Notes: generated by a model not told the origin, from the letters alone. 44,906 nucleotides of DNA from Alphaproteobacteria bacterium 16-39-46 (GCA_002257235.1 NCGZ01000003.1:1-44906), one strand, 5' to 3'; shown: positions 1-26,469, counted from the first letter of the stretch. Translations and numbers: made by a program.

Positions 1-287
1 AAACAAAAATTACAAAAATTGGCTGTGTCTTTCAACTCTATTTTTTATGGTGATATAAGATTCAAATTTTTACGCCATGAAAAGTTGAGAATCGCGTTAT
101 AATTATTTATGAAGCACTTGTTTGTGTCAAGAATTTAAATTTTTGCGTAAACCAGAGTAAATTAAGGCGGAAAATTTTGTTTCACAGCTTTTTCTTGTCT
201 TGAACGTTTAATAGATGTATTTGATGAGAGAGTTGTTGTAATTTTATTGAAAATTTGAGGATGTGTTGGTTTAAGGAAATCTAAGAA

Positions 288-3071: not shown

Positions 3072-3104
3072 GTTTGTTTAAAAAATTGATGTTTAAAGGA
3101 GATT

Positions 3105-3638: not shown

Positions 3639-3640
3639 AA

Positions 3641-4213
3641 ATGCGTCAACGGTTGATCTTAAGTCTTGCTGCTATGGGTGTTGTTCTTTCAGGATGTGAT
3701 GGTGTCCGAAAAACGTTAGGACTCGAGAGAGATCCTCCGGATGAATTCGCCGTGGTCTCGCGGGCTCCTATTTCTTTACCGCCAGATTTTAACACGTTGC
3801 CCACGCCTCAAACGCCAAAACATGGCCATGACGGCAAAAAAGATGTTATTGGGGCCCCGGATAAACGTCCTCAAGAAGATAGTCCTCAACTAAAGGCTCA
3901 AAAAACGGTGTTGGGTCAATCTTCCGTTTTACCCATACCCCACAAGGGAATGATAACAGCCGGGGAGCGCGCGTTTATTCAACGTATCGACCAAAGTCTT
4001 GAAGCGCAGGGTATAGCGCGGGATTCCGTGCCTGATGTTCGAGGCGCTGTCGATCAGGAAACGCATTTCCAGACGGGTAATAAAAAATCATGGGTTCAAG
4101 AGCTTTTATTTTGGCAAAAAGGGGCCGCTCATAAAAAAGAGGCGATTAATCCATCCGAGGAGTACAAAAATCTCCATGGAACTTTGCCAGGGGAAGATGC
4201 TGTCACGCAATAA
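3641..4213 (+). CDS. DUF3035-family lipoprotein
   Basis: Lipobox LSGC; PDEFAVVSRAPISLPPDFNTLPTP is the DUF3035 signature; typical position after lspA in Alphaproteobacteria. Confidence 0.9.
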   Translation: MRQRLILSLAAMGVVLSGCDGVRKTLGLERDPPDEFAVVSRAPISLPPDFNTLPTPQTPKHGHDGKKDVIGAPDKRPQEDSPQLKAQKTVLGQSSVLPIPHKGMITAGERAFIQRIDQSLEAQGIARDSVPDVRGAVDQETHFQTGNKKSWVQELLFWQKGAAHKKEAINPSEEYKNLHGTLPGEDAVTQ

Positions 4214-4250
4214 GCTCTTTTCGAGGGGCTAAAAAAGGATTTCAGTCTTT

Positions 4251-5555: not shown

Positions 5556-5644
5556 TTTCTTTTAGTGAGAAAGAAAAGGTGCTATAAAGCTGATTATACT
5601 TTTTAATATCTTTAGTTAAATTCCTTCTTCAAGGATGAATAAGA

Positions 5645-8600: not shown

Positions 8601-9382
8601 AAGAAAGAGAGATGCCTTTACCGCTTAGGTTACCAGAAGAGGTTGCTTTTGAGATCCATAATTATTCAAATAATATTCATCGGGATATCGTAACATATTT
8701 AGATTCTCAATTACAAAAAGCCTCTTATCCTTACCTTTCTTATGAAGAAGCTATGCGCACCATTCAAGAATGGATTAGAACTGCTAAAAATATTCAGGCT
8801 GAAAATCAAGACGTGGCTTTACAGGCTATAGTTCATGGAATGAATGGCCCTGAATCTCAAGATTGCCTTAGGCGTTGTCTTACATTTGTGACAAAACTCC
8901 ATCCGGATACACTTAATGTCTATATGAATGGATTTATTACAGAATCTATCACAGCTTATCTAGGAAGAAATAATCCTGAAAGTTGTGCAAAAGGCGTGAG
9001 CGAACGCGCTTTAACTGGGCTGCGCGGCACAGATGAATCTCTTGAAGTTTTTTTTCATAAAGCAGAAGCTCTTCAATCTGCAAAAGCATTTTTCGCCATG
9101 TGTAATTTTGGGTATTCTGAAGAAAAAAATCACTGGATGGTAAAAAAACTGCTCGAGCTCGGAATCACCGTTGAAACTCTTCCAAGAGAAGCAGCGCAAC
9201 GATTTGGTGAATATGCTAACGCACACATAAGAAGCTTAAATCTCCAGGAAAATGAATCAGAATATTTAGGGCAGGTGGTTGCGATCGTATCATCTATTGA
9301 AGATTTTTACGATTACCTTCAAGACGGAATTTCTCAATCAATTCAAGCTTCTGCTGATAACACCGAATCTCTACCTTCTTAA
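5645..9382 (+). CDS. Large secreted alpha-helical (HEAT-like) repeat protein, putative effector with a distinct C-terminal domain
   Basis: 1245 aa; N-terminal signal-like segment ending ALYG-LEE; degenerate ~75-85 aa helical repeats; C-terminal AFEIHN...AY...SCAKGVSER region. Confidence 0.75.
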   Translation: MIFFNFLFTNRPIFRAVLGSILIFPCALYGLEEKAPEVQTHRPLPSQRQKDPQKPTLSDLVMRSGNMSGGFREEREAQKKFLKDIQHKAEAPLSERMQAARVFLWQHSEDDLEDKQDALNFFRMLQQEAGISVQTKIEIAQNFLSPGLFEEEEKERQLSFFRNFFHERKGEEQDLIRVARFLASYEKSEDETRTLLKYLEEALRTKRGSQDGQIDIAIAFLFQEKNAGQKTLGRTFLFSFFKEHQDSLDDVDDVLYPLLHYGSEEQKEEIYSFLLNLIKNERASEENRKSAASSLSFSYCHAPPQYQLQGYEFLLALLERENALFFEEIWLQQSMNDLSYKSSPLNRRLCSLLCSLVQNPEASAEDLIACIEILNNIAAQDDITENKEEACKGLLLALEKKAESFCFERRLKIAEKVFEFGNTFQRERCARLLKSFIRNDASFSEHFDMYVEFIHSFKYTSFRHKSSLERAYIFDISLFILERRGSTLSFESRHKFLEDLKYRGTPSQKERCCHLFLPFIEKEATPTEHLKFYGDFVEQVMSESSPSEGSQGSLSPVLLSLMRNEKTPLEIYKKSLRLLCEKGTLEEKKAAEAHFFSLSFERRLTVIRDFLASITEKEINLGYAFLIMSLEDESTSSEDLEAYVTLIQDILSRGSFVARIQNFLSPGSFLYSDLKSSFCETLLKILKNSKTSLEAWDICVRNIFQFGELEQKKRVGEILNENTSPDKLEACGAYMNNILSGNSFLNINTSPCCETLLNILRIPNTSLELWGVCVRNIFRFGELEQKQRAGTILLENALDSELNLDRRIKAATRIIISGQRRVLEEAVVNEALSFLMSVTQNTETPQTLRTEGAQVLHNYGNQIQKIWAYIVLWTPLEQMPLASQIELHTLITHLVPDITQAAGENFARNLSHCPRENWEDQLQRERRFLHLEAHFMNVDIQTRYRVGGLIQAIRNLTPVEQNNLLENSILVCEEYLRLAREATLTQEREMPLPLRLPEEVAFEIHNYSNNIHRDIVTYLDSQLQKASYPYLSYEEAMRTIQEWIRTAKNIQAENQDVALQAIVHGMNGPESQDCLRRCLTFVTKLHPDTLNVYMNGFITESITAYLGRNNPESCAKGVSERALTGLRGTDESLEVFFHKAEALQSAKAFFAMCNFGYSEEKNHWMVKKLLELGITVETLPREAAQRFGEYANAHIRSLNLQENESEYLGQVVAIVSSIEDFYDYLQDGISQSIQASADNTESLPS
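7538..8023 (+). repeat. Intragenic tandem duplication (two ~75-88 aa units) with a nested 39-bp duplication
   Basis: CETLLKILKNSKTSLEAWDICVRNIFQFGELEQKKR vs CETLLNILRIPNTSLELWGVCVRNIFRFGELEQKQR; 7582-7615 vs 7621-7654 match at 29/34 nt. Confidence 0.9.
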
Positions 9383-9583: not shown

Positions 9584-10102
9584 ATGACTCAATTTCCAAT
9601 TTCATATATCTATAAGCCCAAGATATCAGGCATGATTTTTGGTTTATGTTTTTCTGCATTCTGTGCTTACTTTTATATGGAAATGGCACTCACGAAGGAT
9701 CAAGGATTAAAACTTAAAGTTCCTTTTGGATGGGCGTTTTCATTTTCTCCTTCTGAAGCAACTTTATTTTATTGGATTTTATTCATCATCTGTTGTGGGC
9801 TGTCCCTCTTAAGCCTTTTAGGATTTATATGCATTTATCGTTCTTCAAAGGTAGAGGCAAAAATTATTTTTACAAACAAGGAAATGCTTATTCCTTCAAG
9901 TATATTTAATCCTCGTAAAACTTTAGTCATTCCATATATTAACATTCTTTCTTTGCACCTTCATCAAGTAGGTAGAATTCGGTTATTAAAAATTGTTCAT
10001 CAAAAGGGAAAAATATATGTGAGGGAAAGTTTCTTACCCCAAAAATTCATGTTTGATGAAATTATTAATATCCTCAATCACGAAAAATGCAATCTGAAAT
10101 AA
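9584..10102 (+). CDS. Hypothetical membrane protein (two TM helices plus a small beta-rich C-terminal domain)
   Basis: 172 aa ORF with RBS gaggag; two hydrophobic stretches; very AT-rich codons. Confidence 0.7.
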   Translation: MTQFPISYIYKPKISGMIFGLCFSAFCAYFYMEMALTKDQGLKLKVPFGWAFSFSPSEATLFYWILFIICCGLSLLSLLGFICIYRSSKVEAKIIFTNKEMLIPSSIFNPRKTLVIPYINILSLHLHQVGRIRLLKIVHQKGKIYVRESFLPQKFMFDEIINILNHEKCNLK

Positions 10103-12596: not shown

Positions 12597-15500
12597 TCAA
12601 ACGGGTGAAAAAAATCTAAACTGAATTCTGTTCCCTGTGTCTTTTTCAAGTAGTCTTTTCATCGAGGCATGACTCTCGTCACTTCTTGTATAATTACCAG
12701 CATTAACATGAGCAAGATTTGGACTCTTTGCAAAATGAAGAAGAGCCTCATAAACTTGACGACTGGGAACATCCCAAGCCGCTTTTATTCTGTCCGCGAC
12801 AGAACCTGAAAATCCTCCAACGGCACCTGCTGTGGCGCCTGAGGCCCCTGTAATCCCAGCAATTAACGGTAGTCCTACTGCTGCTGTTCCACCTGAGAAA
12901 AATACGGCTGCGACAGCCGCTCCAGAACCGAGGGTGCCACCTATTATTGTGCGTATGAGTTTGTGATTATCTCGGTTTGGGAGCTCGATGGAAAGTTCTC
13001 TCAGGAAGGGGGAGGTCGATAGAACAGCCGCGAGGGCGTGAAAGGTGTCACGGTCAAAAACGTGTTCAATATGGAGGCTTTGAAGGGGAAGTTTTGAGAT
13101 CTCGGTAAAAAACGAAAGAAGTGATCTTTTTCCCATTCCTTCAAAGCATCTGCTGAGGGTTAAAGATTTATTAAAGCGCGTCGATTTAAGGCCGTTTAAG
13201 ACGGGAGGTATCGTTGTCGCATCCAGAACGGCGTCCTGAATAATAATATGATTGAAGACATAGTTTTCAATGGATCCAAAAAAATATATCGACTCCCCTG
13301 AAAACATCTTTGTATTTTCAGGGGCTGATGCTGGATTGATGAAAAGCCGGTAAGGTTTATCTGCGGCTGTGGGGAGTTCAAATGTTTGGATTTCAGGGAT
13401 TGAGGACTTTCCGGAGCTCGCTCCTACTTTAATCCATTCGATACGATTTTTGTCTTTTTCCGTGAAAATAATTTTTTGAAGCGAAGGTTTAGACTGAAAG
13501 AGTGAGAGAAGAAACCATTTAAATTGAGCATATGAATTTCTTTCAGAATTGAAAAGGGATTCAAAATCGTTCTCTGAAAAGTCAATATGTTGAAGATCAT
13601 TTAAAGATAAGCCATTTAAAAATCGACAAACAAATTCAAACGATCTTCGTATTTGAAAGCTTCTTACGAAGCCAAGATGTGTGATTGTTGGGAGTTTACT
13701 CTGAACACAACTGCATACATTTTCTATTACATCTGGATCCATCCTCTGAAACTCAACAGAACGGGGAGAAGGGAGATGGTGATTGTGCAAAAGCGTTCTG
13801 AAAATATGATGAAGTGAACTTTCCACAGCAGCCTGCGTTAAAAGATCTCCTGAAAAATTAAGGCGAACAGTCTCAAAAGGAATTTTATCTTCTGCAAATT
13901 TACCAGAAGGATCAACGACAGCATAGAGAATTTCTCCCCGAAAGGCTTTTAAGTACAAATTTTTTGGCTCCAAGGTGAGTCTCTTAAAATCAGTGTCACT
14001 TGAATAAAAATTGAGCCTATATCCCGGATCGAGAGGACGTGAATCAAGAAGAAGAGAAAGATTAAGGGGTGTGACGATGATTTTTTCATTCTCTTCCCCT
14101 GTTAAGTTAAGAAAAATTCTGTGATAATGAGGATTCTCTGGAGGATTTTCTTCTCCAACGTAAAGAGCCGATGGGCTCACGGCTTTCATTGTTTTTATAA
14201 AGGACGCGTAGCGTCTTTGGAGTTCATAGGTTTCTTTTGGGTGAGAAGCAACCGTTATATAAAAATGCTTAAGATTTGGGAGAGCTCTTAGGGCTTCTGC
14301 GATTATGTCTAAAGGAAGCGTCTGAAATATCCCTGACAGGTTCAGATCTTCGAGGGAAGAAGGCAATAGCTTAAAAGAAGCTGGGTCAGTTTCAGAAGAA
14401 AGGACATTACAAGAAAGATCGAGCGTTTTTAGGGGGACAAATTTTAACTCTGAGAAAACAAGGTTGCAATTTAAAGGGTTCTCTTGTTTAAAACATCCTC
14501 TCAAAATTAAGGTGGTTAAAAGTGGATATTTGGAATTCAAGGAGGTTAAGCATGGAAATCCCCCCTCCAAGGGAAGAAGTGGCGTTCCAGAAAGGTCTAA
14601 TGTATGAAAGGTTTTTCCTGTAACAAAATTAAAAAATTCCGGAGGAAGACCTTTTCCAAAGCAGTTTGTAATACATAAATGATCGAGGTGGGGAGATTCT
14701 ATTATTAATCCCGAAAGCAAGCCTATAAAGTCAAGCGGAGTCATTGTTTGAGGGGTGAGCGCGTCTTGTTCTGATTCAGAAAAGAAGATATCCTGAAAGG
14801 TGAGTTTTTTTAAAGAAGACAGCAAATTTTCCCGCATCAGTTTTTTTAAAAAGGGAAGATTATGGCTGTTTATCTCTAATCTATCCCCATAGAAAGATGT
14901 GAAAGAGAGACGTCCCTCTTTTTTTAGAATTTTTTGAGAGAGACCCAGGGTTCCTGAAAAGGTGAGGGCGGTGAGGGTCCTATGATGGGTTATAAAATTC
15001 TCGAGCGTTGTTTTAAAATCTACGGGCGGGCGCTGATCATCAGAGACATCATCTCTAAAATAGCTTTGCGTTAGGTCGACGTGGGTTATGTTTTTCGTGT
15101 TGAGAGCTGTCATGAGACGCGGAAGAAATCCCGCATTAAAGGTACATCCTGTGAGCGTTACAGAAGAGAGATGTAAAGACGTCTCGAGTATTTTTAATAA
15201 AGAGGCCTCTGCTTGAGACGAGAAGACCATATTATTGATGATGAGAGAAGAGACATTTGTAGGCAGTTCTTCAAAGGTTTCAAGTCGTTGTCTTTCTCGA
15301 TCATTCAAGGCGTCTTCGTCTGGTGTTTGCTCCGAAGGAAAGGTGCCAAAACAGAGATTAAATTTATATGTTACAGGAAAAAAAGTGTGAGAGGATGCTT
15401 CCCCAGTTTGAGAAAGAGCCTTCCATAGAAATTGTCCTTCTTCCCCTTTTGTTTCCAAATAATAACCCTCAGGAGGGATGCCTCTTTCAAAGATTGGCAA

Positions 15501-17198
15501 GCGTGTTGGAGACGTGAAGGGAGCGTTGAGATGTGCTTTTTGAGAGCACCGATCAAGGCACCTTTCTAAAAATATCTGAAAATCATGCTGCTCAGGTCCT
15601 TGTTCTTGAATCCCCCACAGCTCTTTCCACTCTGAATTAATGGAATAGGTGACTTTCTCCCCTTTTCGAAGACTGCCTTGTAACACGAGAGGTGGCATCA
15701 TTGGGTTAAATTCGACGTGAAAAGCCTGACGCGTATTTTTTTGTAAAACGTACTCGGAAACCTTTTGTTTGATTTCTTGAAGAAGTTGATGCTTTTCGAG
15801 TCCTTCCTCTAAGAGAGAAGCTCTCTGCCTCAGAGTGCTTAGGGTGGCATGAAAGAGAGCCTCTTCTTGTTTAAAAGCATCTTCTGATGTTCGATGATGA
15901 CAAAAATAGATAAGGCCTGGTATCTCTTCTTTTGTCTTTGTAAAAGAAAAAGAGGGAGGAATGCTTGGAACGCCGGGGAGAGAAGAAGATGTTGCTGCGG
16001 ATTGTTCCTCTTCTTGGTCTATCATCTCCCAATCGCCGTCACCGTATTCTGAGGGGTCGTCTTCTGTTTTAAAGGAAAGCGTTTGAGACGCTTCTATTTT
16101 GATAAGTTGCTCTCCAAAAGGAGGAGGAAGATCGGTTAGAACAAAGACGTCAAGTTGGTCTTCAGAATTAAGAGCATAAACATATTTGCGCGGCGTGAAA
16201 ATTATATGATGGGTATGTTTTTCTCTTGACGTAATTTTAAGAATTTCAGAGAGATAAACGTCGAAGTGTTCTTTGCGTGAAGACTTCTTATATGGAAACG
16301 GGAGGTTTTTTTTGTTAATGGTTTTCCGTTCAATTTTACCAGAGGGCCCTTTGACGGCATAGGACAGAGTCGTTTTTTCAGGGGTTAGGTAGATCATATT
16401 TGGCTCGAAATTTTCCTCGTTCTCAGGAACATTTAAAGAGAGCTGATAACCGACATGGGTATTAAACATTCCGAGGATATCGACTTCCAAAAATCCAAGC
16501 TTTTCAGACGTAAGTGTGGTTCTAAACGAAAATCTTTTTTGAGGAAAACGCGGTAAATCTTCATAAGCTTTGAGGGAAGGAGCATGTCCTCTTAAAAAAC
16601 ACCCTGTCTGGACGGCGCAAATTTCCTGTGCGGGAGATGAAAGAGTTGATTTAACCTTAAGCGAAAAAGGGTCATGTTGAAAAAAAGAATTTTCGTGTTG
16701 CTCTAAATAAAAATTTGGATTTTTTAGAATAGAAAACTGTTCTTGAGAAATTGGATGCTTTCGAGGATTTAAAAAATCAAGGCCCGTAAAATTTCTGAGA
16801 AGAGAAGCCTCTGAGATAAAAAAATCCTCTCGGTCACGAGGCTTCCAGAAAGTATTTCCAGCTTCATCCGTTGTTTTTGTAAGAGGAACGCCATTTTGCT
16901 GAATGCCTTCAAGGGTATAGAAAATGCTCTGGGTCATTGATGGAGATGAAGGATCCCTCCTTAAATCCTCGGAGAAGATATAATTTGCGGAATACAGTTT
17001 CCCTGTTTGATGGTTCAGTCTCTCCACCAATTCTCGGCGAACCCTCTGAATTTGAGATTCGGTGGCGTTGCTTGATTGATCTGGATCCATCATGGAAAAT
17101 GCAGTGTGCCAAAATAAAAGGAAAAAGCTGCAGACGATAATTTTTTTGAAGGACATGTTTGAAAATTTCCTTGGAATACTATTTTTATTAGTTGTCAT
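12597..17198 (-). CDS. Giant secreted LRR (RI-like) protein with glycine zipper, putative effector
   Basis: 1533 aa; signal peptide (MSFKKIIVCSFFLLFWHTAFS-MMD; true start may be Met15); LRRs such as FHTLDLSGTPL, LKTLDLSCNVL, LEDLNLSG and LQHIDFSENDF; C-terminal Gly/Ala-rich hydrophobic segment. Confidence 0.8.
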   Translation of the reverse strand: MTTNKNSIPRKFSNMSFKKIIVCSFFLLFWHTAFSMMDPDQSSNATESQIQRVRRELVERLNHQTGKLYSANYIFSEDLRRDPSSPSMTQSIFYTLEGIQQNGVPLTKTTDEAGNTFWKPRDREDFFISEASLLRNFTGLDFLNPRKHPISQEQFSILKNPNFYLEQHENSFFQHDPFSLKVKSTLSSPAQEICAVQTGCFLRGHAPSLKAYEDLPRFPQKRFSFRTTLTSEKLGFLEVDILGMFNTHVGYQLSLNVPENEENFEPNMIYLTPEKTTLSYAVKGPSGKIERKTINKKNLPFPYKKSSRKEHFDVYLSEILKITSREKHTHHIIFTPRKYVYALNSEDQLDVFVLTDLPPPFGEQLIKIEASQTLSFKTEDDPSEYGDGDWEMIDQEEEQSAATSSSLPGVPSIPPSFSFTKTKEEIPGLIYFCHHRTSEDAFKQEEALFHATLSTLRQRASLLEEGLEKHQLLQEIKQKVSEYVLQKNTRQAFHVEFNPMMPPLVLQGSLRKGEKVTYSINSEWKELWGIQEQGPEQHDFQIFLERCLDRCSQKAHLNAPFTSPTRLPIFERGIPPEGYYLETKGEEGQFLWKALSQTGEASSHTFFPVTYKFNLCFGTFPSEQTPDEDALNDRERQRLETFEELPTNVSSLIINNMVFSSQAEASLLKILETSLHLSSVTLTGCTFNAGFLPRLMTALNTKNITHVDLTQSYFRDDVSDDQRPPVDFKTTLENFITHHRTLTALTFSGTLGLSQKILKKEGRLSFTSFYGDRLEINSHNLPFLKKLMRENLLSSLKKLTFQDIFFSESEQDALTPQTMTPLDFIGLLSGLIIESPHLDHLCITNCFGKGLPPEFFNFVTGKTFHTLDLSGTPLLPLEGGFPCLTSLNSKYPLLTTLILRGCFKQENPLNCNLVFSELKFVPLKTLDLSCNVLSSETDPASFKLLPSSLEDLNLSGIFQTLPLDIIAEALRALPNLKHFYITVASHPKETYELQRRYASFIKTMKAVSPSALYVGEENPPENPHYHRIFLNLTGEENEKIIVTPLNLSLLLDSRPLDPGYRLNFYSSDTDFKRLTLEPKNLYLKAFRGEILYAVVDPSGKFAEDKIPFETVRLNFSGDLLTQAAVESSLHHIFRTLLHNHHLPSPRSVEFQRMDPDVIENVCSCVQSKLPTITHLGFVRSFQIRRSFEFVCRFLNGLSLNDLQHIDFSENDFESLFNSERNSYAQFKWFLLSLFQSKPSLQKIIFTEKDKNRIEWIKVGASSGKSSIPEIQTFELPTAADKPYRLFINPASAPENTKMFSGESIYFFGSIENYVFNHIIIQDAVLDATTIPPVLNGLKSTRFNKSLTLSRCFEGMGKRSLLSFFTEISKLPLQSLHIEHVFDRDTFHALAAVLSTSPFLRELSIELPNRDNHKLIRTIIGGTLGSGAAVAAVFFSGGTAAVGLPLIAGITGASGATAGAVGGFSGSVADRIKAAWDVPSRQVYEALLHFAKSPNLAHVNAGNYTRSDESHASMKRLLEKDTGNRIQFRFFSPV

Positions 17199-17347
17199 AA
17201 TGCTTTTAGGAAAGCTTCTGAGGGGGCCATTCTATCTAAAAAAAAAGATAAAAGATAGATCTTAGATGAAAGGGTCAGAGCATCTCACCCTCCAAAAGGT
17301 CTCTCGAAAAAGAGTTCAGGGTTTACTTTTAGGGTGCTCTTGACCTT

Positions 17348-20300
17348 CTATTCATCGTCTTCTGAGGAAGGGTTCACATCTTCTCCCTCCTTTTCGACAT
17401 TTTCCCAGTCTCCAATGTCGTCATCAGAAGCCTTCTCTTCGAGGGGTTTTAAGGTGAGGGCTTTTTCTTCTATAACCTTTTTCGGTAATACTTGAATTTC
17501 CAAGGGTGTTCTGTAGAGCGCCTGAAGTCTTACATTGAGAAGGGCTTGGTTTGTTTTAACGCATCCTGTCTCACTTCTATTAACGTTGTGTATGGAAAGC
17601 TTTCTGAGGTCACCCCAGGTTCTCACGATGTCTTCAAAAGTTTTCACCGTAAAGTCACTTTTTTTATCTCTTTTCGCAAAAGCCCGTGCGTCACTTGCTT
17701 TTGCTCCTGAGATTCCTCCAGCAATGGCCCCAATCAAACCTCCTGCAGCAGCTCCAACTGGTCCGGCTACGACAAACCCTGCTGCTGCGCCCGACGTAGC
17801 TCCGCCAAAAGCACCTGCAGCCCCTCTTTTTTTTGCGGAGCTCTTTTTTCGGGGGGCATTTATAGAAAGTTCTTGAAGCGTTGAAGAGGAAAGAGCTCGT
17901 ATGAGCAGTTTAAAAGAATCTTCAGAGATGGGATTTCCTGAAAAATCAAATCGTTTCAGACTATTTAGTCCTTCTATAAACTCAAAAAAATCAGCTGGTA
18001 AGTCCCCTTTTAAACCACAGTCTTTAAAAGAAAAGTCAGAAAGAGGAGCGCGCAACTGTTTGAGCACCTCGAGATGTTCTAAGACGTGAGGGGCTCCGAT
18101 AATGTGCAATTCTGTCAGGAAAGGTGTGTATTGTGCTTCTTTTAACGTTTCTTGGACCTGAGAATCTAAAGATAAGTCTTCTTCATAACTCATTTTAAAC
18201 CCAAAAGGCTCATTTTGATCTGTTTTTTCAATTCTTCTTATGCCGCTTTCAGGACTGCCCACTGGATCCAATTCGTCTGCGGATGCAGATGCTCCAGTCG
18301 TTTTCTCTGCAGGCTCTGCCCTTAAAGATTTCCATGTCATATATGGATTTGCTGCTGCATGTATAATTTCATAAAATCCGGAAGGCAGATCTTCAGGAAT
18401 CTCAAAATTTAAAGGCGTTATTTTTGAGTTTCCCTTCATACATATCAAAGTATGGACTTGATCAAGAGAATATTTTGGCCTTAAGGAAGAAGGGGATGTT
18501 TTCACCGTTCTTAATTGATGATTTTCAGTGTGAACGATATTTGAAGAAAAACGCGAATTTCTCAAAATTTTATAAAGGCCATCCTTATCTTTTGGTCGTT
18601 CATCAGGTGATATTCCAAAGACTCTTCCTTTCGTTTTTTTACCTTTCAACAAAGAATCGTAAAAACGAAGAAGGAATTGGTTTACATCTCTGTCTTCCAA
18701 GACCCAATTTTGCCACCAGTTTATATCGTACGCAAAGGTAGGATTTTTATATCCGACTTCATACAAGCGATTCCCTTCCCAATAAATCCAGTCGGGTAGT
18801 AACTGAGAGGTATTTTCGATTTTTATCGGCAGTGTTTGAGAGGCGTGTACGAAATAAGTGCCTCCTAAAAAAGAAGCCTCCGCATGAAAATAGACAGATA
18901 TCTCTTTTGTAAAAGGATTTGTTACGTAAAAAATTCCTTTAATTTTAGCCATAAGCGCGTCCTGATGGCTTGTTTCTATTAATAGGCTACAGGTCCTTTG
19001 ATCGCTTAAAGATCCTGAAAATATTGTTACATGACTCGTAATTTCGCAAAGCCCTTCCTCCAGGGATTTTTCGAGGGAAGTCTTTGAACGGCTTTCGACC
19101 CATCTGTGTTTTTTAAGTGTAAAAACCTCTTCTAAGGGTGATCGACTTCCTGATATTAAGGAAAGCGTAAATTGGGGGGAAGGGTCTGACTGCGCAAAAT
19201 AATGCCCTGTTTCTGTTACAAGGCTCTGAATAAGATTCCAGGGGGCCTCTTTAACGTTCTGGAGTGATCGATTCTCCCACAAATTTATTTTCTTCTCCTT
19301 CTCCTCTTCTTTCTTTTTATCTGCGGCACTCGATTGAGTTCTCTTACCAGTTTTCCACTCTTCTCGGTTTATTTCAAGAATTTTATACTCGGGCACAACA
19401 TCGGAGACAGAGGGGACTCCGCTTCCTACGTCAGGCGCCTCATGGTAGAAAATATGACTCTCGTTGAAGGCATTCCCCCTTTCTTGCCGGTTCAACATCT
19501 CTATGAATCGCGTTCTTTCTTGCTGTTCGACAGAAGGGGGAGGATTTTCTGCTGCAGCTGCCCCCCGTGCGCCTGGAGGAGGAGCTACATCGGTATCTAA
19601 GACAAGTCCCGTAACGTCTTCTTCTTCATCTTCATCTTCTTTTTCTATAATTAAGCGTTCTTGTTTTTTTAAAAGAGCGTAGTATCGACTTTCCTCCTCT
19701 TCTATTTGTTTGAAAAAAGGGGGAAGCGTCTGTAGGTTTCCACTTCTGAATACTTCAATTCGATAAGGTTTGTTGTGATCTCTTTTTCTGATATTATAAG
19801 AAGTACCATTTCTTCCAGTCCAGATTAAAGAAAGATTTCCAAGAAAAGAATGAGCCCCGTGTTCTTCTTCAGCAGACGGAGAGGGACGCTGAACGTTACA
19901 GGAATACATATCAGGAGGGAGATCTTTTGGAATAAGACAGTTTAAAAAATTAATTTCTTCTGGGGTTACGTTTAAGACAGGTGTCGAGAAGAACTCTTCT
20001 GTTTCTGCGCGGCGCATCCATCGTTGGGATCCCTCTGCACGCAAAATTTTACCACTGGACTCTGGTCCAGAGTAATAGATATAACTGCTGTCGAGGGGCA
20101 TCTTAAATAAAGTTTCATAAAATCCAGGTGTTGGCGCCTCCAAAAGGGCCTCTCCAATCGTTCGGTTAGGATTTTTTTTGAGCGCAGGCTGAAACACTTC
20201 CGCAAATTGTCGTAAGCTTGAGGATAAGTTTAGAGTCTTATCCAAAATTTCAGAATACTGAGTCCAATTCTCCCACCATCGTTTATCGTAAAAGGTACGA

Positions 20301-21214
20301 TTAAAGTTCTGCATTTTGGGCTCAACGCCGGTCATCTTACTCCCTTCCCAATAAACCCAGTCAGAAAAAGGGGTGGGATCTGGCCAACTGGTGATGATAC
20401 TTTTTGACGCTTTTATAAATTGAAGCGCTTGAACTTCTGGAAAATGAACATGAAAATAAACAGAAACCTCACTCATTTCAGGGATTCCGATATAAGACAC
20501 TCCTTGGATTTTTCCCGAAAAGGGAAATTCTGTTTTAGTTTCGACATGAATCTCTATTTTATGTCCATTGGGTAAGAGACCTTTTAGAATGATGTCTTGT
20601 TTTTGCGCAAAACACGTGCCTCTTTCTAAAAAGCTCTTTAAAGAAGCCTCGTTTCTTTGAAAATCAGGAATTTCAAAACATCTTGTGATGTGACTTATAG
20701 GGAAATGATGATAAGGACTTGTTCTCTCCGAGGATAAAGAAAGAGATTGTTCAGAAAAATTTGAACCATAAAAATTAATGAGGTCACGCAAACTCCCAAA
20801 AAAAGAGCCATTTTTTTTTGCCTCATTTGTTATTCTTAAGCTTTCTTCTCCTAATTTTTTAAAATCTTGTTCGTGGGGCTCAAATACATTTATTCCTTTA
20901 ATAGCAAGTATTGAAAAAGAGGGGAGCGGTAACTCCTGAACTTGATCTCCGTTACAATTAAGCGCTCCATAAAAAATCTCTCTTGGAGAAACTGTCCTAT
21001 GACTTTGTGTTTGTAAAAAAGGAAACAATGCTTCTAAATTGCCTTTCTCTTCTCGTCCTTCTGCTAAAGGCGCGGGAGGAGAGGCGGCTATAGAGGCCGG
21101 AGGGGTTGCTCCCTCATGCGTTTCCTCCATTGCCCCGCACACGAAAAATCCTGAGCTCATCAAGAGGAGGCTTATCCTAAGAAATAGTGGAGGGATCTTG
21201 TTTAGGGGGGTCAT
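17348..21214 (-). CDS. Giant secreted protein with a duplicated novel domain, LRRs and glycine zipper; paralog of the 1533-aa protein
   Basis: 1288 aa; signal peptide ending VCGA-MEE; internal duplication (DWVYWEG..WWENW vs DWIYWEG..WWQNW); LRR LKRFDFSGNPIS; GAAGAFGG...GGLIGAIAGG zipper; acidic tail. Confidence 0.8.
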   Translation of the reverse strand: MTPLNKIPPLFLRISLLLMSSGFFVCGAMEETHEGATPPASIAASPPAPLAEGREEKGNLEALFPFLQTQSHRTVSPREIFYGALNCNGDQVQELPLPSFSILAIKGINVFEPHEQDFKKLGEESLRITNEAKKNGSFFGSLRDLINFYGSNFSEQSLSLSSERTSPYHHFPISHITRCFEIPDFQRNEASLKSFLERGTCFAQKQDIILKGLLPNGHKIEIHVETKTEFPFSGKIQGVSYIGIPEMSEVSVYFHVHFPEVQALQFIKASKSIITSWPDPTPFSDWVYWEGSKMTGVEPKMQNFNRTFYDKRWWENWTQYSEILDKTLNLSSSLRQFAEVFQPALKKNPNRTIGEALLEAPTPGFYETLFKMPLDSSYIYYSGPESSGKILRAEGSQRWMRRAETEEFFSTPVLNVTPEEINFLNCLIPKDLPPDMYSCNVQRPSPSAEEEHGAHSFLGNLSLIWTGRNGTSYNIRKRDHNKPYRIEVFRSGNLQTLPPFFKQIEEEESRYYALLKKQERLIIEKEDEDEEEDVTGLVLDTDVAPPPGARGAAAAENPPPSVEQQERTRFIEMLNRQERGNAFNESHIFYHEAPDVGSGVPSVSDVVPEYKILEINREEWKTGKRTQSSAADKKKEEEKEKKINLWENRSLQNVKEAPWNLIQSLVTETGHYFAQSDPSPQFTLSLISGSRSPLEEVFTLKKHRWVESRSKTSLEKSLEEGLCEITSHVTIFSGSLSDQRTCSLLIETSHQDALMAKIKGIFYVTNPFTKEISVYFHAEASFLGGTYFVHASQTLPIKIENTSQLLPDWIYWEGNRLYEVGYKNPTFAYDINWWQNWVLEDRDVNQFLLRFYDSLLKGKKTKGRVFGISPDERPKDKDGLYKILRNSRFSSNIVHTENHQLRTVKTSPSSLRPKYSLDQVHTLICMKGNSKITPLNFEIPEDLPSGFYEIIHAAANPYMTWKSLRAEPAEKTTGASASADELDPVGSPESGIRRIEKTDQNEPFGFKMSYEEDLSLDSQVQETLKEAQYTPFLTELHIIGAPHVLEHLEVLKQLRAPLSDFSFKDCGLKGDLPADFFEFIEGLNSLKRFDFSGNPISEDSFKLLIRALSSSTLQELSINAPRKKSSAKKRGAAGAFGGATSGAAAGFVVAGPVGAAAGGLIGAIAGGISGAKASDARAFAKRDKKSDFTVKTFEDIVRTWGDLRKLSIHNVNRSETGCVKTNQALLNVRLQALYRTPLEIQVLPKKVIEEKALTLKPLEEKASDDDIGDWENVEKEGEDVNPSSEDDE

Positions 21215-21691: not shown

Positions 21692-21953
21692 TGTTATTTC
21701 TTTCTTTTTATGTTGATGATTTCTTAAGTTTTGAATTTTTTGAAACTATTGTCAATAAGGAAAAAGCCTTTTTTGGGGATAAATCTTGCTGATTTTCATG
21801 CAAAATATAAAGATCGCTCTAAAGGAGGAGAAATAGTATTCTTGGAAATCAGGGGAATAAATGCAGAATGTATCTTTTTTCTAAAGATATTTAAAATCGT
21901 CTGTTAAAATAAACATAAGACTCAAAAAAAATAATAAAACAGGAGAAAACGAG

Positions 21954-22223
21954 ATGAAACCTAATCGAAAAATGTTGTCGCTTTCAGGTGTTGCAGGTGT
22001 ATTAAGTATCTTGTGCTTTTCAAGCATGGGAATGTGCAGTGGAGAGGTGCGCTTTTATGAAAAGCCAAAGGAGGCTTTTATTGATCATAAAAAGAAAGCT
22101 CTTGTCATAGGATCAAAAGGAACGCTTGCTAAAATATTCCCTGTTTCTCCAAAGACAGAACAGGAAGGAATTAAGGAGAGTGTTGATAGAGCCATAGTTG
22201 CCGTATTGAACGAGAAGCAATAA
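21954..22223 (+). CDS. Small secreted hypothetical protein
   Basis: 89 aa; RBS aggag; N-terminal signal-like hydrophobic segment. Confidence 0.7.
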   Translation: MKPNRKMLSLSGVAGVLSILCFSSMGMCSGEVRFYEKPKEAFIDHKKKALVIGSKGTLAKIFPVSPKTEQEGIKESVDRAIVAVLNEKQ

Positions 22224-22458
22224 ATGGTGTTTAGTGAACAAGAGTAGGATGAATCTTGACCTTGGATTGGACGTCCGAAGGCCTTTTAAGTGTCGTGACG
22301 GTTCGCAGGTCTTCTTTTCTTAGGCGATTATTCTTTTCTTTTTTTTTAAAAAAATAAAACTTCGATCTCCCTCTTCACAAGAGCACTTTGGTCGCACGCA
22401 ACAGAATATTTGCATATTGCGTCTGGAATAAGAGGTATTTTTCTTAATTTGACCGCAA

Positions 22459-23136
22459 TCACTCTGATTCATCTGTTGCTTCCATTGACGGAAAGTCTGG
22501 AAACTGAGGCGTTTCCAAGGTCCAGATGACGATTTCTTTCCCAACACGATTTGTTGCAGTGAGAAAAGCGTCTATGACTTCTTTAAAAGAATCTTGGGGG
22601 ATAGGGACCATGCTCTCAAAGGTCTTTGCTCCCACAATCTCACGGTCTTTGAGACGCATTATTTTTCCAAAGATGCGGATGCGCACTTCTTTGGATTCTC
22701 TGACCATGAGCTCAAAATCTCGAATGTCAATGAGGAGGACATAATCTGCGTCGAGTCCATCGAGAGATGTCCCGACGCCTTTGATTTGCCCAGAGTTTTC
22801 AAAGAGATTCAGAAGCAATTGTTGAATAAGATTGGGAAGACGATCGACCCACCTTGCGCCTGAGACATGGGTGATCTCTGCTGAAGATGTTTGAACAACG
22901 ATGCGATCTGTGTTGAGGCGTCCGTCACAGGACGGATCTTCCAGGATAAGCTGCCATTTAACAGGATGAAGGCTTGCACGTTCTTTTTCAGAGAAAGGAA
23001 GCGTTTTGAGGTAAAAGAGCTTATACTTTTCAGAGTTTTTAGGAAGGTTCATACAGCCCGACAAGATCAAAAGAGAAAAGCAGCCGAGGAAGACCGTTGA
23101 AACGCGCATAAAAATACTTCTTTTAGTTAAGAACAT
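22459..23136 (-). CDS. ABC-type transport auxiliary lipoprotein (PqiC-like)
   Basis: Lipobox LSGC; LNTDRIVV, GARWVD and ADYVLLIDIRDFE; last gene of the Mla/MCE operon. Start re-called at MFLTKR (23136) downstream of aggag, overlapping the mlaD stop. Confidence 0.88.
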   Translation of the reverse strand: MFLTKRSIFMRVSTVFLGCFSLLILSGCMNLPKNSEKYKLFYLKTLPFSEKERASLHPVKWQLILEDPSCDGRLNTDRIVVQTSSAEITHVSGARWVDRLPNLIQQLLLNLFENSGQIKGVGTSLDGLDADYVLLIDIRDFELMVRESKEVRIRIFGKIMRLKDREIVGAKTFESMVPIPQDSFKEVIDAFLTATNRVGKEIVIWTLETPQFPDFPSMEATDESE

Positions 23137-24034
23137 ATCCATCATCTCCTGTTCCAAATATGAAAGCCCAAGGGTCTCTTTCAAGGCTTGTGCTCACGCG
23201 ATTAATACTTTCCAAAGTAATCCGGAATTCTGACATCACATTCGAGAATTCATAAAGTCCAGATGTTAAGAACGTTTGAAGGGGGATTTTGTTTTGGTTC
23301 AAGAAATCACGAGACTCTTGGAAGAAGTCGTGGGCGCTTTGTGAGAGAGGAAGGAGCTCATCTTGTAAAGTTTGAGCAAAGGATCTGAATGATTTAGATG
23401 TCTCTGAAATCTCTTTAAAGGCTGTATCCGCGTTTTCAAGGAACTGGTCGATGGTATGCGCTTTGTTTGCAAATGTTTGTGTGAGGATTTTAAGATTCTC
23501 TAAAATAGAAGCTAAGTTTTGAGTATTGCTTGTGTTCAGGATTAAATCTAAATCTTGAGAAAGTTTATTTAAGTTTTGAAGAAGCTTGGGAGCTGCTTCA
23601 AATATTTCTTCGATTTTAGAAGGTTTCGAGGGGATGACGGGGTAGTCATCTTTTAAGATCGCTGTGAGAGGGGGGCTTCCAGGAGATCCTCCTGTTAGCT
23701 GAACAAAGGCAATGCCTGTGATGCCCTGCATTTCAAGAGAAGCTTCTGTGTCTTTTCGAATGGGTGTGCTCGGCACAAGGTTAATACGAACACGAATTTG
23801 CTCGATATTCTTGGGGTCAATAACAATAGATTTGACACTTCCCACAGGCACACCGCGATAAAGGACCTGAGCGCCGAGTTTTAACCCCGTTACCGACCCT
23901 TGAAAATAAATATCATAAAGATTATCGGTTCCGCTAAATTCTTTTTTGCCCATCCAGAGGACAAATCCTAAAGCTCCAAGAAGGAGGATAAGAACAAAAG
24001 TCCCAACAGTCAAATAACGTGCTTGTGTTTCCAT
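23123..24034 (-). CDS. mlaD: MCE/MlaD family protein
   Basis: METQARYLTVGTFV N-terminal anchor; SVTGLKLGAQVLYRGVPVGSV and QGITGIAFVQLTGG MCE motifs; helical tail. Confidence 0.92.
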   Translation of the reverse strand: METQARYLTVGTFVLILLLGALGFVLWMGKKEFSGTDNLYDIYFQGSVTGLKLGAQVLYRGVPVGSVKSIVIDPKNIEQIRVRINLVPSTPIRKDTEASLEMQGITGIAFVQLTGGSPGSPPLTAILKDDYPVIPSKPSKIEEIFEAAPKLLQNLNKLSQDLDLILNTSNTQNLASILENLKILTQTFANKAHTIDQFLENADTAFKEISETSKSFRSFAQTLQDELLPLSQSAHDFFQESRDFLNQNKIPLQTFLTSGLYEFSNVMSEFRITLESINRVSTSLERDPWAFIFGTGDDGYVLN

Positions 24035-24829
24035 TTAAAACCCTTTTCCAAAGATTTTACGGGCTCTATTTCCATGAAAATAGTCATGGATCCAAGGGTC
24101 TTCCATTTTTTTGAGCTCTTCAAAGGTTCCAAGGAAGAGTTTTTTATGCAGAAGGACCCCAATACGAGTGCAGACTGACTTTATAGTATCAAGATCATGT
24201 GTAATCATAAAGACGGTAAATCCTAAATGAGCATGTAATTTTTTAAGGAGTGTATCAAAAGCCTCAGCTGAAATTGGGTCAAGTCCAGATGTTGGCTCAT
24301 CCAGAAAGAGAATGCTGGGATCAAGAGCGAGTGCCCGCGCGAGACCGACACGTTTTGTCATCCCTCCAGAGAGCTCAGAGGGGTATTTTAAGGCCGTGTC
24401 CAAAGGAAGCCCGACCATCCCAAGTTTTAAGGCAACGATTGAATCTGCAAAGGGTGGATAAATCTGAGCGACTTCCTTTAAGGGGACGAGGATGTTTTCA
24501 CGGACCGTGAGAGACGTATAGAGAGCGCCATTTTGAAACAAAACTCCGCAAGATTTATCAACTTGTTCTTGAGCGCTTTCAGGGGCCTGATAAATATCTT
24601 TTCCGAGAAGTCTGATCGATCCTGACTGAGGTGGCTTAAGTCCTAAGATCGTCCTTAAAAGGACAGATTTTCCGGAACCAGATCCTCCAATAATACCGAT
24701 AATCTCGCCTTTGAAGATAGTTAAATTTAAATTTTCATGAATGAGCGTTGACCCAAAGTTTGTCACCAGGTTTTTTATGTCTATGACGGGTTTTTCAGGG
24801 CTGAGAGAAAGCGCGGGGGGATGCATCAT
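24035..24829 (-). CDS. mlaF: ABC transporter ATP-binding protein, MlaF family
   Basis: Walker A GGSGSGKS, LSGGMTKRVGLARALALDP and FLDEPTSGLDP; within the MCE operon. Confidence 0.93.
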   Translation of the reverse strand: MMHPPALSLSPEKPVIDIKNLVTNFGSTLIHENLNLTIFKGEIIGIIGGSGSGKSVLLRTILGLKPPQSGSIRLLGKDIYQAPESAQEQVDKSCGVLFQNGALYTSLTVRENILVPLKEVAQIYPPFADSIVALKLGMVGLPLDTALKYPSELSGGMTKRVGLARALALDPSILFLDEPTSGLDPISAEAFDTLLKKLHAHLGFTVFMITHDLDTIKSVCTRIGVLLHKKLFLGTFEELKKMEDPWIHDYFHGNRARKIFGKGF

Positions 24830-25963
24830 TTAAATTCCTAAATACGAAAAAAGAATTGAAAATGCCGCATCGGCAACAATGACCAAGAAAATTGATTCGA
24901 CAACCGACTTGGTGGTGTGTTGTCCGATGCTTTCGGCGCTTCCAGATACCTGAAGACCTTCAAAGCATCCCACAAGACCAATGAGAAAAGCAAAAAAAGG
25001 AGACTTTACCATACCGACCCAAAACGTTGTGGGCGTTATGGCGAGTTTGAGTTGCTCTATGAACTGAACATAGCTGAGGTCCATTAAAGTATGCGTCATA
25101 AAGGCTCCCCCTAAAAGTCCAACGATGTCAGAAAAAAAAGTGAGGAGAGGGAGTGCAATCATAAGCGCCATAATTCGTGGAATGACGAGAACATTTACAG
25201 GATCAAGACCCATGGTTTGCATGGCATCAACTTCCTCGTTGAGAACCATAGTTCCAATTTGAGCGGTAAAAGCACTTCCAGATCTTCCAGCAACAACAAT
25301 TGCCGTAATAAGAATTCCAACCTCCCTCAGAATTCCCAACGCCAGAAGATTAACTGTAAAAATCTCGGTTCCAAAACGTTTGAGTTGGGTTACGCCTTGA
25401 TAGGCAAGAACAACACCAATTAAGAATGAAATAAGGCCAACAATGGGAAGGGCATTCACCCCCACATCTTGCAAATGGGAACAAAAAGATATGAGACGGA
25501 ATGAGGAGCGCTTCCTAAGTGATTGAAGCAGCGTGACAATAACTTCTCCAAAAAAAGAGGTCAGTTGAAGGGTCAAAGAGAAGAGGTTCACGGTGGCCTC
25601 GCCGAGCCTTAAAACAAAAGACCTAAAAGCCGAAGACTTTTTTGGAGTGTCTTCCAAATTAAGAGGGTAGTGATGAACAAGATTCAAGATTTGCAGAGTT
25701 TCGTCGCTTCCGTTCTCAAATTTAACGGAGTATTTTTGATCTTCTAACCGCTTTTTTAAAGAAAGAAGCAACACGGCGCCGCCTGTGTCTATTTTGAAGA
25801 TTTCTGAGAGATCGATAATAACTTTTCGGATCTTCCTGTCCTCAAGATCGATGCTTTGAAGTGTTTGGTAGTGTTTTCCGAGCGTCCAGAGACACCACTC
25901 CCCTTTTGGAAAGAGGACGATTTCAGAGCGGTGTTTTTGAATCGACAAGAAGGGCGCTGACAC
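24830..25963 (-). CDS. mlaE: MlaE family permease with N-terminal STAS domain
   Basis: IDLSEIFKIDTGGA (STAS); REVGILITAIVVAGRSGSAFTAQIGTM and EEVDAMQTMGLDP; GTG start with RBS aaggag. Confidence 0.95.
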   Translation of the reverse strand: MSAPFLSIQKHRSEIVLFPKGEWCLWTLGKHYQTLQSIDLEDRKIRKVIIDLSEIFKIDTGGAVLLLSLKKRLEDQKYSVKFENGSDETLQILNLVHHYPLNLEDTPKKSSAFRSFVLRLGEATVNLFSLTLQLTSFFGEVIVTLLQSLRKRSSFRLISFCSHLQDVGVNALPIVGLISFLIGVVLAYQGVTQLKRFGTEIFTVNLLALGILREVGILITAIVVAGRSGSAFTAQIGTMVLNEEVDAMQTMGLDPVNVLVIPRIMALMIALPLLTFFSDIVGLLGGAFMTHTLMDLSYVQFIEQLKLAITPTTFWVGMVKSPFFAFLIGLVGCFEGLQVSGSAESIGQHTTKSVVESIFLVIVADAAFSILFSYLGI

Positions 25964-26139
25964 TCTTTTTCTCCTTTATTTTTCTTAAGCGTTTTTAGGA
26001 GTCCTTCCCTTATAATGTGAGGGAAAGAGAGACAGAAAGCAATGTCCTTTTTTTAAGTTAAAAAAATAAGGAGGGTTCTTAAGAAAAAAAACAATGTAAA
26101 TGGGTAAGAGAGACTTCAGATTTTTTTTGGTTCAAGTCC

Positions 26140-26469
26140 TTAAAGCGTCTCATAATCAAACGTTTGAGAGGAAAAAGGAAGGGCCGCGTCGATGTCTCCA
26201 ATCTCAAGTTTTTTGTAATAATGGGGAAAAATAACGCCTTTAGCGTTAGGCTCCCATTTGAGATGATCTGTGAGACGGGATTCTTTCATTTTTAAAAGAA
26301 CAAGGTGAAGTGCATCTGCATAATATTTGAGGGCAGTTGCCTTCACTTGAGAAGGGAGACTCATATGAATAAACCCATCCTTTTGATCGCGCTCATTCCC
26401 GAGATAAAAACCAAACTCTTGAGCTTTTTCCCAAGCATTTTGATCTGCGATATGATAAATGTAAGACAT
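26140..26469 (-). CDS. DUF952 family protein
   Basis: IYHI, DGFIHMS, LKWE and FPHYY motifs; start re-called at MSYIYHI (26469). Confidence 0.9.
   Translation of the reverse strand: MSYIYHIADQNAWEKAQEFGFYLGNERDQKDGFIHMSLPSQVKATALKYYADALHLVLLKMKESRLTDHLKWEPNAKGVIFPHYYKKLEIGDIDAALPFSSQTFDYETL

Follow-up and report, generated by a model that had tools for sequence, protein, structure and literature searches.

Do two large neighbouring genes of Alphaproteobacteria bacterium 16-39-46 encode membrane-anchored proteins that engage the autophagy machinery of a host? A first-pass annotation of the DNA analysed here (the window, a whole contig of 44,906 nucleotides) had suggested so for positions 12597 to 21214. 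The window corresponds to the 44.9-kb contig C46 of genome G000, which comprises 128 contigs and 1.886 Mb and is 99.7% complete. The two genes are placed exactly as had been annotated: they are adjacent and co-oriented minus-strand open reading frames (ORFs) for proteins of 1533 aa (P0001, 12597..17198) and 1288 aa (P0002, 17348..21214). Their orthologs in G001, a second genome of the same genus, are likewise intact and adjacent, beside mutL (P0004, 1534 aa, 49% identical to P0001 over its full length; P0005, 1263 aa, 47% identical to P0002). Since both genes are intact in G001 as well, P0001 and P0002 are real genes. Their products combine known kinds of parts, namely leucine-rich repeats (LRRs), a glycine zipper and a motif like the LC3-interacting region or ATG8-interacting motif (LIR/AIM), in a new arrangement and within an unannotated family. 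Tentatively, we favour the possibility that they are exported, membrane-anchored LRR proteins whose tail motif docks on a host factor, with ATG8 as the best candidate.

The acidic tryptophan motif and the family that carries it

P0001 and P0002 belong to a small, fast-evolving and lineage-restricted family without a Pfam entry. A word-based search of 5.8 billion proteins returned for P0001 only the protein itself and two C-terminal fragments, and for P0002 it returned P0008 (75% identity) and the G001 ortholog P0009/P0005 (47%), annotated in one source as a hypothetical protein of 'Proteobacteria bacterium'. A HMMER scan of 1.84 billion representatives with a profile of the orphan domain described below yielded seven proteins at E <=0.001: the two already known, four single-domain relatives (P0012-P0015, 722-785 aa, E 1e-31 to 2e-9) and a protein with CARDB repeats. 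The search of metagenome contigs gave 584 pattern matches and one confirmed locus, L021, where P0014 and a second paralog, L021b, stand in tandem beside lon (84-4532, plus strand). The Lon protein of this locus is 92% identical to that of G000; P0014, at least, therefore comes from a close relative of this organism, in which it occupies a different locus. G000 also has a distant paralog pair of its own, at 239-5782 (minus strand) of L035 on contig C36. Its larger member, C36_668 (668 aa), has a leader, GFY motifs, LRRs and a zipper, and P0017 (376 aa) consists of the leader and the domain only. Pfam gave nothing, or one sub-threshold LRR match, for P0012-P0015 and P0017.

The acidic W-x-x-[IV] motif that had been assigned to each of the two proteins is indeed present. 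In P0001 it reads GDWEMI (residues 388-393, 16020..16037, minus strand; YGDGDWEMIDQEEE) and is followed by a Ser/Pro-rich low-complexity stretch; in P0002 it reads DWENV (residues 1269-1273, 17396..17410, minus strand, codons checked) and lies in the acidic C-terminal tail (residues 1246-1288, 17351..17479, minus strand). The AlphaFold2 model leaves this tail unstructured, with pLDDT (the local model confidence) of 28-34 and no secondary structure, from a shallow alignment with three informative rows. The P0002 motif aligns with EEWQAV, EEWQVV, SDWDIL and EDWEVL of its relatives and with DWEFF of P0008. In all, eight versions are found: GDWEMID in P0001 (388-394), EDWTLID in P0004, its sole full-length ortholog (in the context EEEEDWTLID), GDWENVE in P0002, EEWQAVD in P0005, GDWEFFE in P0008, EEWQVVD in P0012, SDWDILS in P0013 and EDWEVLD in P0014. 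Each of them has an acidic residue at -1, E, Q, D or T at +1 and L, I, V or F at +3. Aspartate or glutamate stands just past the core in six of the eight, with S in P0013 (DWDILS) and F in P0008 (DWEFFE). The conserved tail form can be summarised as [DE]W[EQD]x[VLF].

The family members are 21-25% identical overall and their tails are unalignable apart from the motif, which is aligned in five of the six rows of alignment A4, the neighbouring columns not being so. [DE]W..[LIVF] occurs within the last 60 residues in six of the nine members with a P0002-type C-terminus. Since composition-matched random 60-mers contain it with a frequency of 1-3.5% per member, the tail motif is not a chance string, and this pattern of conservation is characteristic of a short linear motif under selection. 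Loss of the motif in homologs had been named in advance as evidence against the ATG8 interpretation; on the contrary, it is kept in orthologs and distant relatives at a rate well beyond that chance. The strict form [DE]W[EQDT]x[LIVF][DES] is found in seven of the 1077 G000 ORFs of >=200 aa, both window genes among them.

The LIR/AIM consensus consists of acidic residues, a tryptophan, two variable positions and then L, I or V; the iLIR work reportedly extends it to a six-residue pattern. We take GDWEMI, EDWTLI, EEWQAV, EEWQVV, SDWDIL and EDWEVL to match this extended pattern and DWENV to match the core only, P0008 having WEFF. Judged by sequence, the acidic tryptophan motif fits the canonical LIR/AIM pattern and is a candidate docking site for ATG8. 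A narrow literature search for LIR-bearing LRR effectors of endosymbionts found no such family.

The distribution of the family is restricted. Among eight genomes of the order it was found only in the genus g1, and a sample of 400 genomes of the class yielded no member, the four weak matches there (17-21 bits) falling on the LRR/zipper part. A search of genome contigs with A5 gave 139 pattern matches, none of which was confirmed. Two further candidates were discarded: one match among 41 relatives beyond G000 and G001, in G021, is spurious and lies in a BioY-like membrane protein, and a match in G005, within the order, belongs to an unrelated LRR-tailed protein with an apparent FAD/NAD-binding fingerprint by eye. 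Copy number and locus vary between close relatives. The G000 contig that matches L021 stops 1.1 kb upstream of lon, and no family fragment was found elsewhere in G000. The L021 tandem pair splits the features between its members, P0014 having the tryptophan tail without the glycine zipper and L021b the zipper without the tail. Such lineage restriction and such variation in copy number and locus are typical of host-facing proteins. A test of dN/dS (the ratio of non-synonymous to synonymous rates) was dropped because synonymous sites are saturated at 49% protein identity. In G001, a further ORF of >1262 aa beyond the ortholog pair was noticed (L006 15214-18999, plus strand, contig C78); it runs off the end of the sequence covered.

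Repeats, hairpin, orphan domains and leaders

Both proteins end in LRRs like those of ribonuclease inhibitor (RI), as had been proposed, with a solenoid of ~28-residue beta-strand/alpha-helix repeats and matching profiles. P0001 is organised as a leader, an orphan N-half, LRR block 1 (residues ~630-983, 14250..15311, minus strand; a solenoid of RI/NLR/RanGAP/FBXL type), a small beta region, LRR block 2 with the glycine zipper, and a last repeat. Its C-terminal module (residues 1323-1533, 12600..13232, minus strand) comprises the last LRRs, the zipper and the closing repeat. In P0002, the leader is followed by two tandem copies of a ~450-aa orphan domain, an RI-like LRR module with the zipper as an insert (residues ~1015-1245, 17480..18172, minus strand, hairpin included) and the acidic tail. 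Structure searches with the confident LRR parts of the models retrieved LRR proteins only, mostly of the RI/NLR/RanGAP/FBXL class, and the neighbours include Legionella LegL7 and Ralstonia RipG4. When the family profile A4 was compared with PDB sequences, the matches included RI (1dfj_I, E 1.4e-15), NLRP1 (E ~1e-8) and RanGAP1 (E 2e-6), and all 32 matches were of RI, NLRP, RanGAP or LRRC34 type. P0001 taken alone gave no phmmer match in PDB sequences, and with it Pfam LRR_2 reaches only E 0.7. An F-box ahead of the LRRs was considered and dropped, there being no Pfam match and no conserved F-box pattern by eye.

How much the two proteins share depends on the region. Default BLASTP of P0001 against P0002 found nothing significant (best E 1), which the first-pass annotation had named as a result that would tell against its proposal; the C-terminal ~190 residues are nevertheless homologous once the low-complexity filter is off and profiles are used. 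With an 11-sequence family profile, residues 1323-1519 of P0001 align with ~1037-1227 of P0002 (hhalign 98.1%, E 8.7e-14), and with the ortholog pairs only, residues 1381-1525 align with 1096-1233 (95.6%, E 1.3e-8). P0001 contains four further copies of the LRR unit found in this module (hhalign E 4e-5 to 6e-3). Elsewhere in G000, at 21728-26161 (plus strand) of contig C56, a 1477-aa protein with hydrophobic segments carries a long regular RI-type LRR array (...LQTLDLS.N.IG..DS.GT.ALA...); it is weakly related to the C-terminal module of P0001 and P0002.

In both proteins the LRRs are interrupted, as had been noted, by a hydrophobic Gly/Ala segment, a GxxxG-rich stretch of ~45-50 residues before the last repeat. 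In P0001 it spans residues 1417-1465 (12804..12950, minus strand), with a central G-L-P turn, a Kyte-Doolittle hydropathy (KD) of 1.5-1.84, 56% G+A+S and 19 [GAS]xxx[GAS]; in P0002 it spans residues 1125-1172 (17699..17842, minus strand), with a central A-G-P turn, KD up to 1.86, 65% G+A+S and seven GxxxG. Across the family the hairpins have 48-65% G+A+S, 4-11 GxxxG, 16-24 [GAS]xxx[GAS] and KD 1.5-2.0, and a central GP or LP turn is present in every zipper-bearing member. The hairpin is found in P0001, P0004, P0002, P0005, P0008, P0010, P0013, P0015, L021b and C36_668 and is absent from P0012 and P0014. Since these two retain the flanking repeats, the hairpin represents an insertion into the loop that precedes the last LRR, and its two flanks would therefore share one side of whichever membrane is involved. 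Matches to glycine-zipper families are weak and fall exactly on residues 1117-1177 of P0002. All of them are below the gathering cut-offs (10.9-23.9 bits against 25-175), for instance 11.4/28.9 for PF13441, 10.9/25 for PF13488 and 16.2/30 for PF20721 (C19orf12-like); a precomputed annotation lists PF13441 for P0009. The segment has pLDDT 22-35 in the AlphaFold2 models. In composition and turn the segment resembles a glycine-zipper membrane hairpin and is a putative membrane-inserting helix-turn-helix of ~48 residues.

The N-terminal parts are less clearly related. A single unrecognised domain common to both proteins had been suggested from six short strings, and all six are present and in the same order; the match between the P0001 N-half and the P0002 domain is, however, not significant, with hhalign E values of 0.02-0.1 only. 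In a column-shuffle control, the observed local score (z 3.3) was attained by one shuffle in 100, and the third pair of strings (P..G[FY]Y) follows a generic pattern seen where beta-sandwiches end. The domain itself is found as a tandem internal duplication of P0002, residues 154-437 aligning with 680-948 (hhalign 99.5%, E 4.2e-22). As seen in these alignments, the novel domain of the first-pass annotation is a ~450-aa orphan domain present twice inside P0002: copy 1 covers residues 30-545 (19580..21127, minus strand; hhalign against copy 2, alignment A1) and copy 2 residues 546-1010 (18185..19579, minus strand; AlphaFold2 pLDDT <50). The end of copy 2 (LNFEIPEDLPSGFYEII) is similar to the final strands of CARDB/Ig-like domains, and positions 376-412 of the domain profile match P0016, a protein of seven CARDB repeats. 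AlphaFold2 gave no confident fold for the orphan domains of P0001 or P0002; the models of P0002 546-1288 and P0001 36-1235 have mean pLDDT of 40.1 and 40.8, the LRR parts alone being confident. Since only these LRR parts are usable, the two N-halves are not comparable by fold. A feature search of the ESM Atlas with P0001 36-640 and P0002 546-1010 returned no usable match. Pfam and NCBIfam scans of both proteins found nothing above cut-off.

Signal peptides on both proteins, also part of that annotation, are plausible. By inspection and hydropathy scan, all 11 family proteins listed follow the pattern of a Sec signal peptide: a basic N-terminal end, a hydrophobic stretch of ~20 residues (KD 1.6-2.2), small residues at -3 and -1, and then acidic residues. 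The leaders end in CGA|MEE, CKA|MEE, SLA|MEE, STA|MEE, AFS|MMD or VLS|MML. That of P0001 covers residues 1-35 (17094..17198, minus strand; hydrophobic core 19-38; ...TAFS|MMDPD) and is conserved in P0004 (MHFKKVIILSLFYLVCHPVLS|MML). That of P0002 covers residues 1-28 (21131..21214, minus strand; ...FFVCGA|MEETHEG) and is conserved in P0005 and P0008. In sequence, the leaders thus have the shape of a Sec signal peptide. The 1533 aa of P0001 are those of its longest ORF; since its copies in databases and in the Atlas begin at residue 15 (nt 17156), with which the start of the ortholog agrees, its true length is probably 1519 aa. At least 10 other G000 ORFs of >=300 aa end their leader in ...A-M-E-E-E, which may serve as a signal for export or processing that many proteins of this genome share. 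Leaders of the M-E-E-E or L-E-E-E form were seen on contigs C5, C15, C52, C55, C61, C62, C74, C89 and C97, one of the ORFs encoding 2585 aa.

Location of the proteins and possible partners of the motif

These elements could act together as follows. The protein would be exported past the periplasm, and its glycine-zipper hairpin would hold it on a membrane, which could be that of the bacterial surface, of the host or of a vacuole, with both hairpin flanks on one side. The LRR surface would bind a host protein, and the tail motif would dock on a host factor by beta-augmentation. If this factor belongs to the ATG8 family, the best candidate, the motif would be a LIR/AIM and the protein an adaptor or decoy for ATG8 that is anchored in a membrane. 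Three elements of this scheme are inferred: that the proteins leave the periplasm, that they insert into a membrane, and which partner the motif has. The interpretation of P0001 and P0002 as ATG8-engaging effectors is plausible; it is partly supported, and strengthened by the conservation of the motif. The narrower proposal of an autophagy-receptor mimic evolved by a protist-associated intracellular proteobacterium, in which the LRRs would bind a host cargo or regulator, the hairpin would sit in the membrane around the symbiont or in that of the bacterial surface, and the AIM would recruit or sequester ATG8, appears unlikely to us; there, anchor and AIM would be united in one protein (P0002, P0013) or split over tandem paralogs (P0014/L021b).

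Several observations weigh against the engagement of ATG8. A Sec leader combined with two moderately hydrophobic helices would, by default, anchor the protein in the inner membrane on the periplasmic side, out of reach of host ATG8. P0015, L021b and C36_668 end just past the last strand and have no motif; neither the fold nor the role of the core therefore requires it. The WEFF of P0008 is non-canonical, with F at +3, and the pattern itself is degenerate, each protein containing 18-39 bare [WFY]xx[LIV] cores. The motif of P0001 is internal, its surroundings having pLDDT 21-27 like the entire N-half. A weak alignment (E 0.069) places its DWEMID on the DWIYWE that is invariant in the family, and it may be a remnant of the family domain's structural tryptophan. 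In the single-domain members P0012, P0013 and P0014 the motif lies ~7-9 residues past the last predicted strand and could, at this distance, pack back on the LRRs as a cap. A complex prediction for P0001 1291-1533 and P0002 985-1288 returned 'no answer' (score 0.00) and is evidence for neither side.

The possible cap leads to the least probable of the alternatives, which we regard as very doubtful: the tryptophan motif would be a C-terminal cap or latch on the last LRR, and that of P0001 the relic of a core tryptophan, neither having a linear-motif function. The short spacing in the single-domain members and the DWEMID/DWIYWE alignment are in its favour. A cap is not needed, however, since P0001/P0004, P0015, L021b and C36_668 end right past the last strand without such an element; in P0002, P0005 and P0008, moreover, ~25-30 low-complexity residues separate the LRRs from the motif and 10-33 residues follow it, and the P0002 tail is unstructured in its model, a point weakened by the shallow alignment. 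A more serious rival, possible although rather unlikely in our estimate, is a periplasm-facing or surface protein of the bacterial envelope. The proteins would be exported by Sec and anchored by the zipper, either in the inner membrane through a stop-transfer/re-insertion hairpin or in the outer membrane in the manner of glycine-zipper lipoproteins, their LRR and orphan domains would be periplasmic or surface-exposed adhesins or scaffolds, and the acidic motif would bind a bacterial partner or act as a sorting tag. Every member has a Sec-like leader; the A-M-E-E-E ending shared with at least 10 other ORFs is as expected of a general export route; the sub-threshold hairpin matches are all to envelope-type zippers (YMGG, Gly-zipper_Omp, TraT, PdsO, YiaD, CmpA); and G000 encodes a small glycine-zipper lipoprotein-like ORF on contig C47. 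On the other hand, LRRs of the RI/FBXL/NLR type are mainly eukaryotic or effector-type, as the neighbours LegL7 and RipG4 illustrate, the hydrophobicity of the hairpin is modest (KD 1.5-1.9), and lineage restriction, copy-number variation and fast divergence are unlike housekeeping parts of the envelope. Recognition of an acidic WxxL tail is not known to us from any bacterial system.

The proteins could also be host-directed effectors whose motif serves something other than ATG8, that is, SUMO, clathrin-adaptor appendages, kinesin light chain, Arp2/3, or export through a type IV or type VI secretion system (T4SS, T6SS); we consider this quite unlikely. The four eukaryotic candidates all recognise acidic or tryptophan motifs. 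In favour of this reading, conservation of the motif names no partner, and WQVV, WEVL and WDIL also resemble SUMO-interaction motifs, which have a hydrophobic core with acidic flanks. WENV and WQAV, by contrast, break that pattern, and the constant L, I, V or F at +3 with variable +1 and +2 is the pattern of a LIR. The tryptophan-acidic pattern of kinesin cargo calls for a hydrophobic residue at -2, and here there is none; this motif and the WxxF adaptor motif were rejected because the flanks do not suit either pattern. As for secretion, G000 has T4SS genes, the C36 paralog pair is located immediately upstream of the sole vgrG detected in this genome, and the adjacency of P0017 and vgrG is kept in G001 (L039, C37, 3758-7212, minus strand), so that a connection between the wider superfamily and type VI secretion is possible despite the Sec-like leaders. 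T6SS or T4SS cargo is, however, not expected to bear Sec leaders, VirB-type signals are basic rather than acidic, and the paralogs next to vgrG lack the tryptophan motif. Among the scanned neighbours of P0001 and P0002, which do not comprise all window ORFs, no secretion gene was found, and neither protein lies beside vgrG, hcp, PAAR or adaptor genes, as T6SS cargo would.

ER-phagy receptors of the FAM134B type, which act at the endoplasmic reticulum, combine a membrane hairpin with a disordered LIR tail; P0001 and P0002 have no reticulon-homology domain (Pfam, E up to 1) and only one Gly/Ala hairpin, inside the LRRs, and the likeness is one of analogy only. Chlamydial Inc proteins are secreted and anchored by a hydrophobic hairpin with both flanks on the same side; they are type III substrates with bilobed, strongly hydrophobic lobes of ~20 residues near the N-terminus, come from another organism and have no sequence relation to P0001 or P0002. 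Like the glycine-zipper families (Gly-zipper_YMGG, Gly-zipper_Omp and the C19orf12-like family; PdsO, YiaD), the two proteins have a GxxxG stretch of ~45-50 residues with a central turn; here, however, a large LRR protein, and not a small lipoprotein, carries the zipper as an insert. LegL7 and the GALA/RipG proteins differ in that P0001 and P0002 are much larger, have a Sec-type leader and a hairpin-interrupted LRR domain, and showed no F-box or other known N-terminal module in the Pfam scan.

In RavZ of Legionella pneumophila, LIR motifs and a distinct membrane-targeting element cooperate, which brings the protein to membranes decorated with ATG8 (PMC6941762, PMC8634866). RavZ is thus a bacterial protein that pairs a LIR-type motif with a membrane element, as is predicted here for motif and hairpin. 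RavZ delipidates ATG8 as a cysteine protease, however; it is a Dot/Icm substrate that lacks a Sec leader, and its membrane element binds phosphatidylinositol 3-phosphate, whereas P0001 and P0002 have no recognisable catalytic domain, a scaffold of LRRs and orphan domains, a glycine-zipper hairpin and no sequence relation to it. The closest precedent cited for the tail motif is PexRD54 of Phytophthora infestans, in which the AIM WEIV on a disordered C-terminus binds host ATG8 (PMC5025708). It has the same combination of a repeat scaffold with a motif in the C-terminal tail (here DWENV, EWQAV, EWQVV and DWEVL), and differs in being an oomycete RXLR effector of WY domains with no membrane anchor and no homology to P0001 and P0002.

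If the tail does bind ATG8, these proteins would represent a second bacterial route to the autophagy machinery, unrelated to RavZ, and the first such route built on an LRR scaffold with a membrane hairpin in a loop. They would come from an uncultured, environmental, endosymbiont-like lineage and not from a human pathogen, which would suggest that autophagy-receptor mimicry is old and widespread in associations of bacteria with protists. Even without ATG8, the ~450-aa orphan domain, the glycine zipper inside an LRR domain and the genome-wide A-M-E-E-E leader are new. As the family is tiny and metagenome-derived, its practical value depends on heterologous tests.

Gene neighbourhood and genome of the bacterium

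The two genes are separated by a gap of 149 bp, in which no strong terminator-like site was found. Upstream of P0002 there is a promoter-like site, and past P0001 a terminator-like site with a 10-bp stem. The scanned neighbours are MutL, genes of an Mla-type transporter and orphans. Just upstream of the P0002 promoter region, an operon for mlaE, mlaF, mlaD and an auxiliary lipoprotein contains an MlaE permease with an N-terminal STAS fusion (24830-25963, minus strand). Between a pgi-like gene and mutL lie P0006, a 1245-aa orphan (5645-9382, plus strand) that is helix-rich by eye and has a similar hydrophobic leader, and a 172-aa orphan (9584-10102, plus strand). Neither has a Pfam match, both are missing from the syntenic G001 site, and P0006 is possibly another lineage-specific secreted protein.

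The sequencing runs that carry the DNA of G000 (39% G+C) are four DNA runs of one study, labelled mine drainage metagenome, with no RNA run listed. The gene content of G000 points to a life inside a host cell. The genome encodes five ATP/ADP translocases (TLC), one of them in the window (31863-33404, plus strand, 561 bits), and such translocases are a hallmark of energy parasitism. Its secretion genes include a virB4-B6-B8-B9-B10 cluster, VirD4-like genes, the T6SS sheath and spike components TssC and VgrG, and a secretin. Since the 1.886-Mb genome has five ATP/ADP translocases together with T4SS, T6SS and secretin genes, its owner would seem to be an obligate intracellular bacterium with the means to send proteins into a host. 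Near the vgrG locus on contig C36 (L035), we also noticed genes for a SOUL haem-binding protein (6275-6880, plus strand) and an alternative oxidase (AOX, 8733-9350, minus strand, 274 bits), both of families that are better known from eukaryotes.

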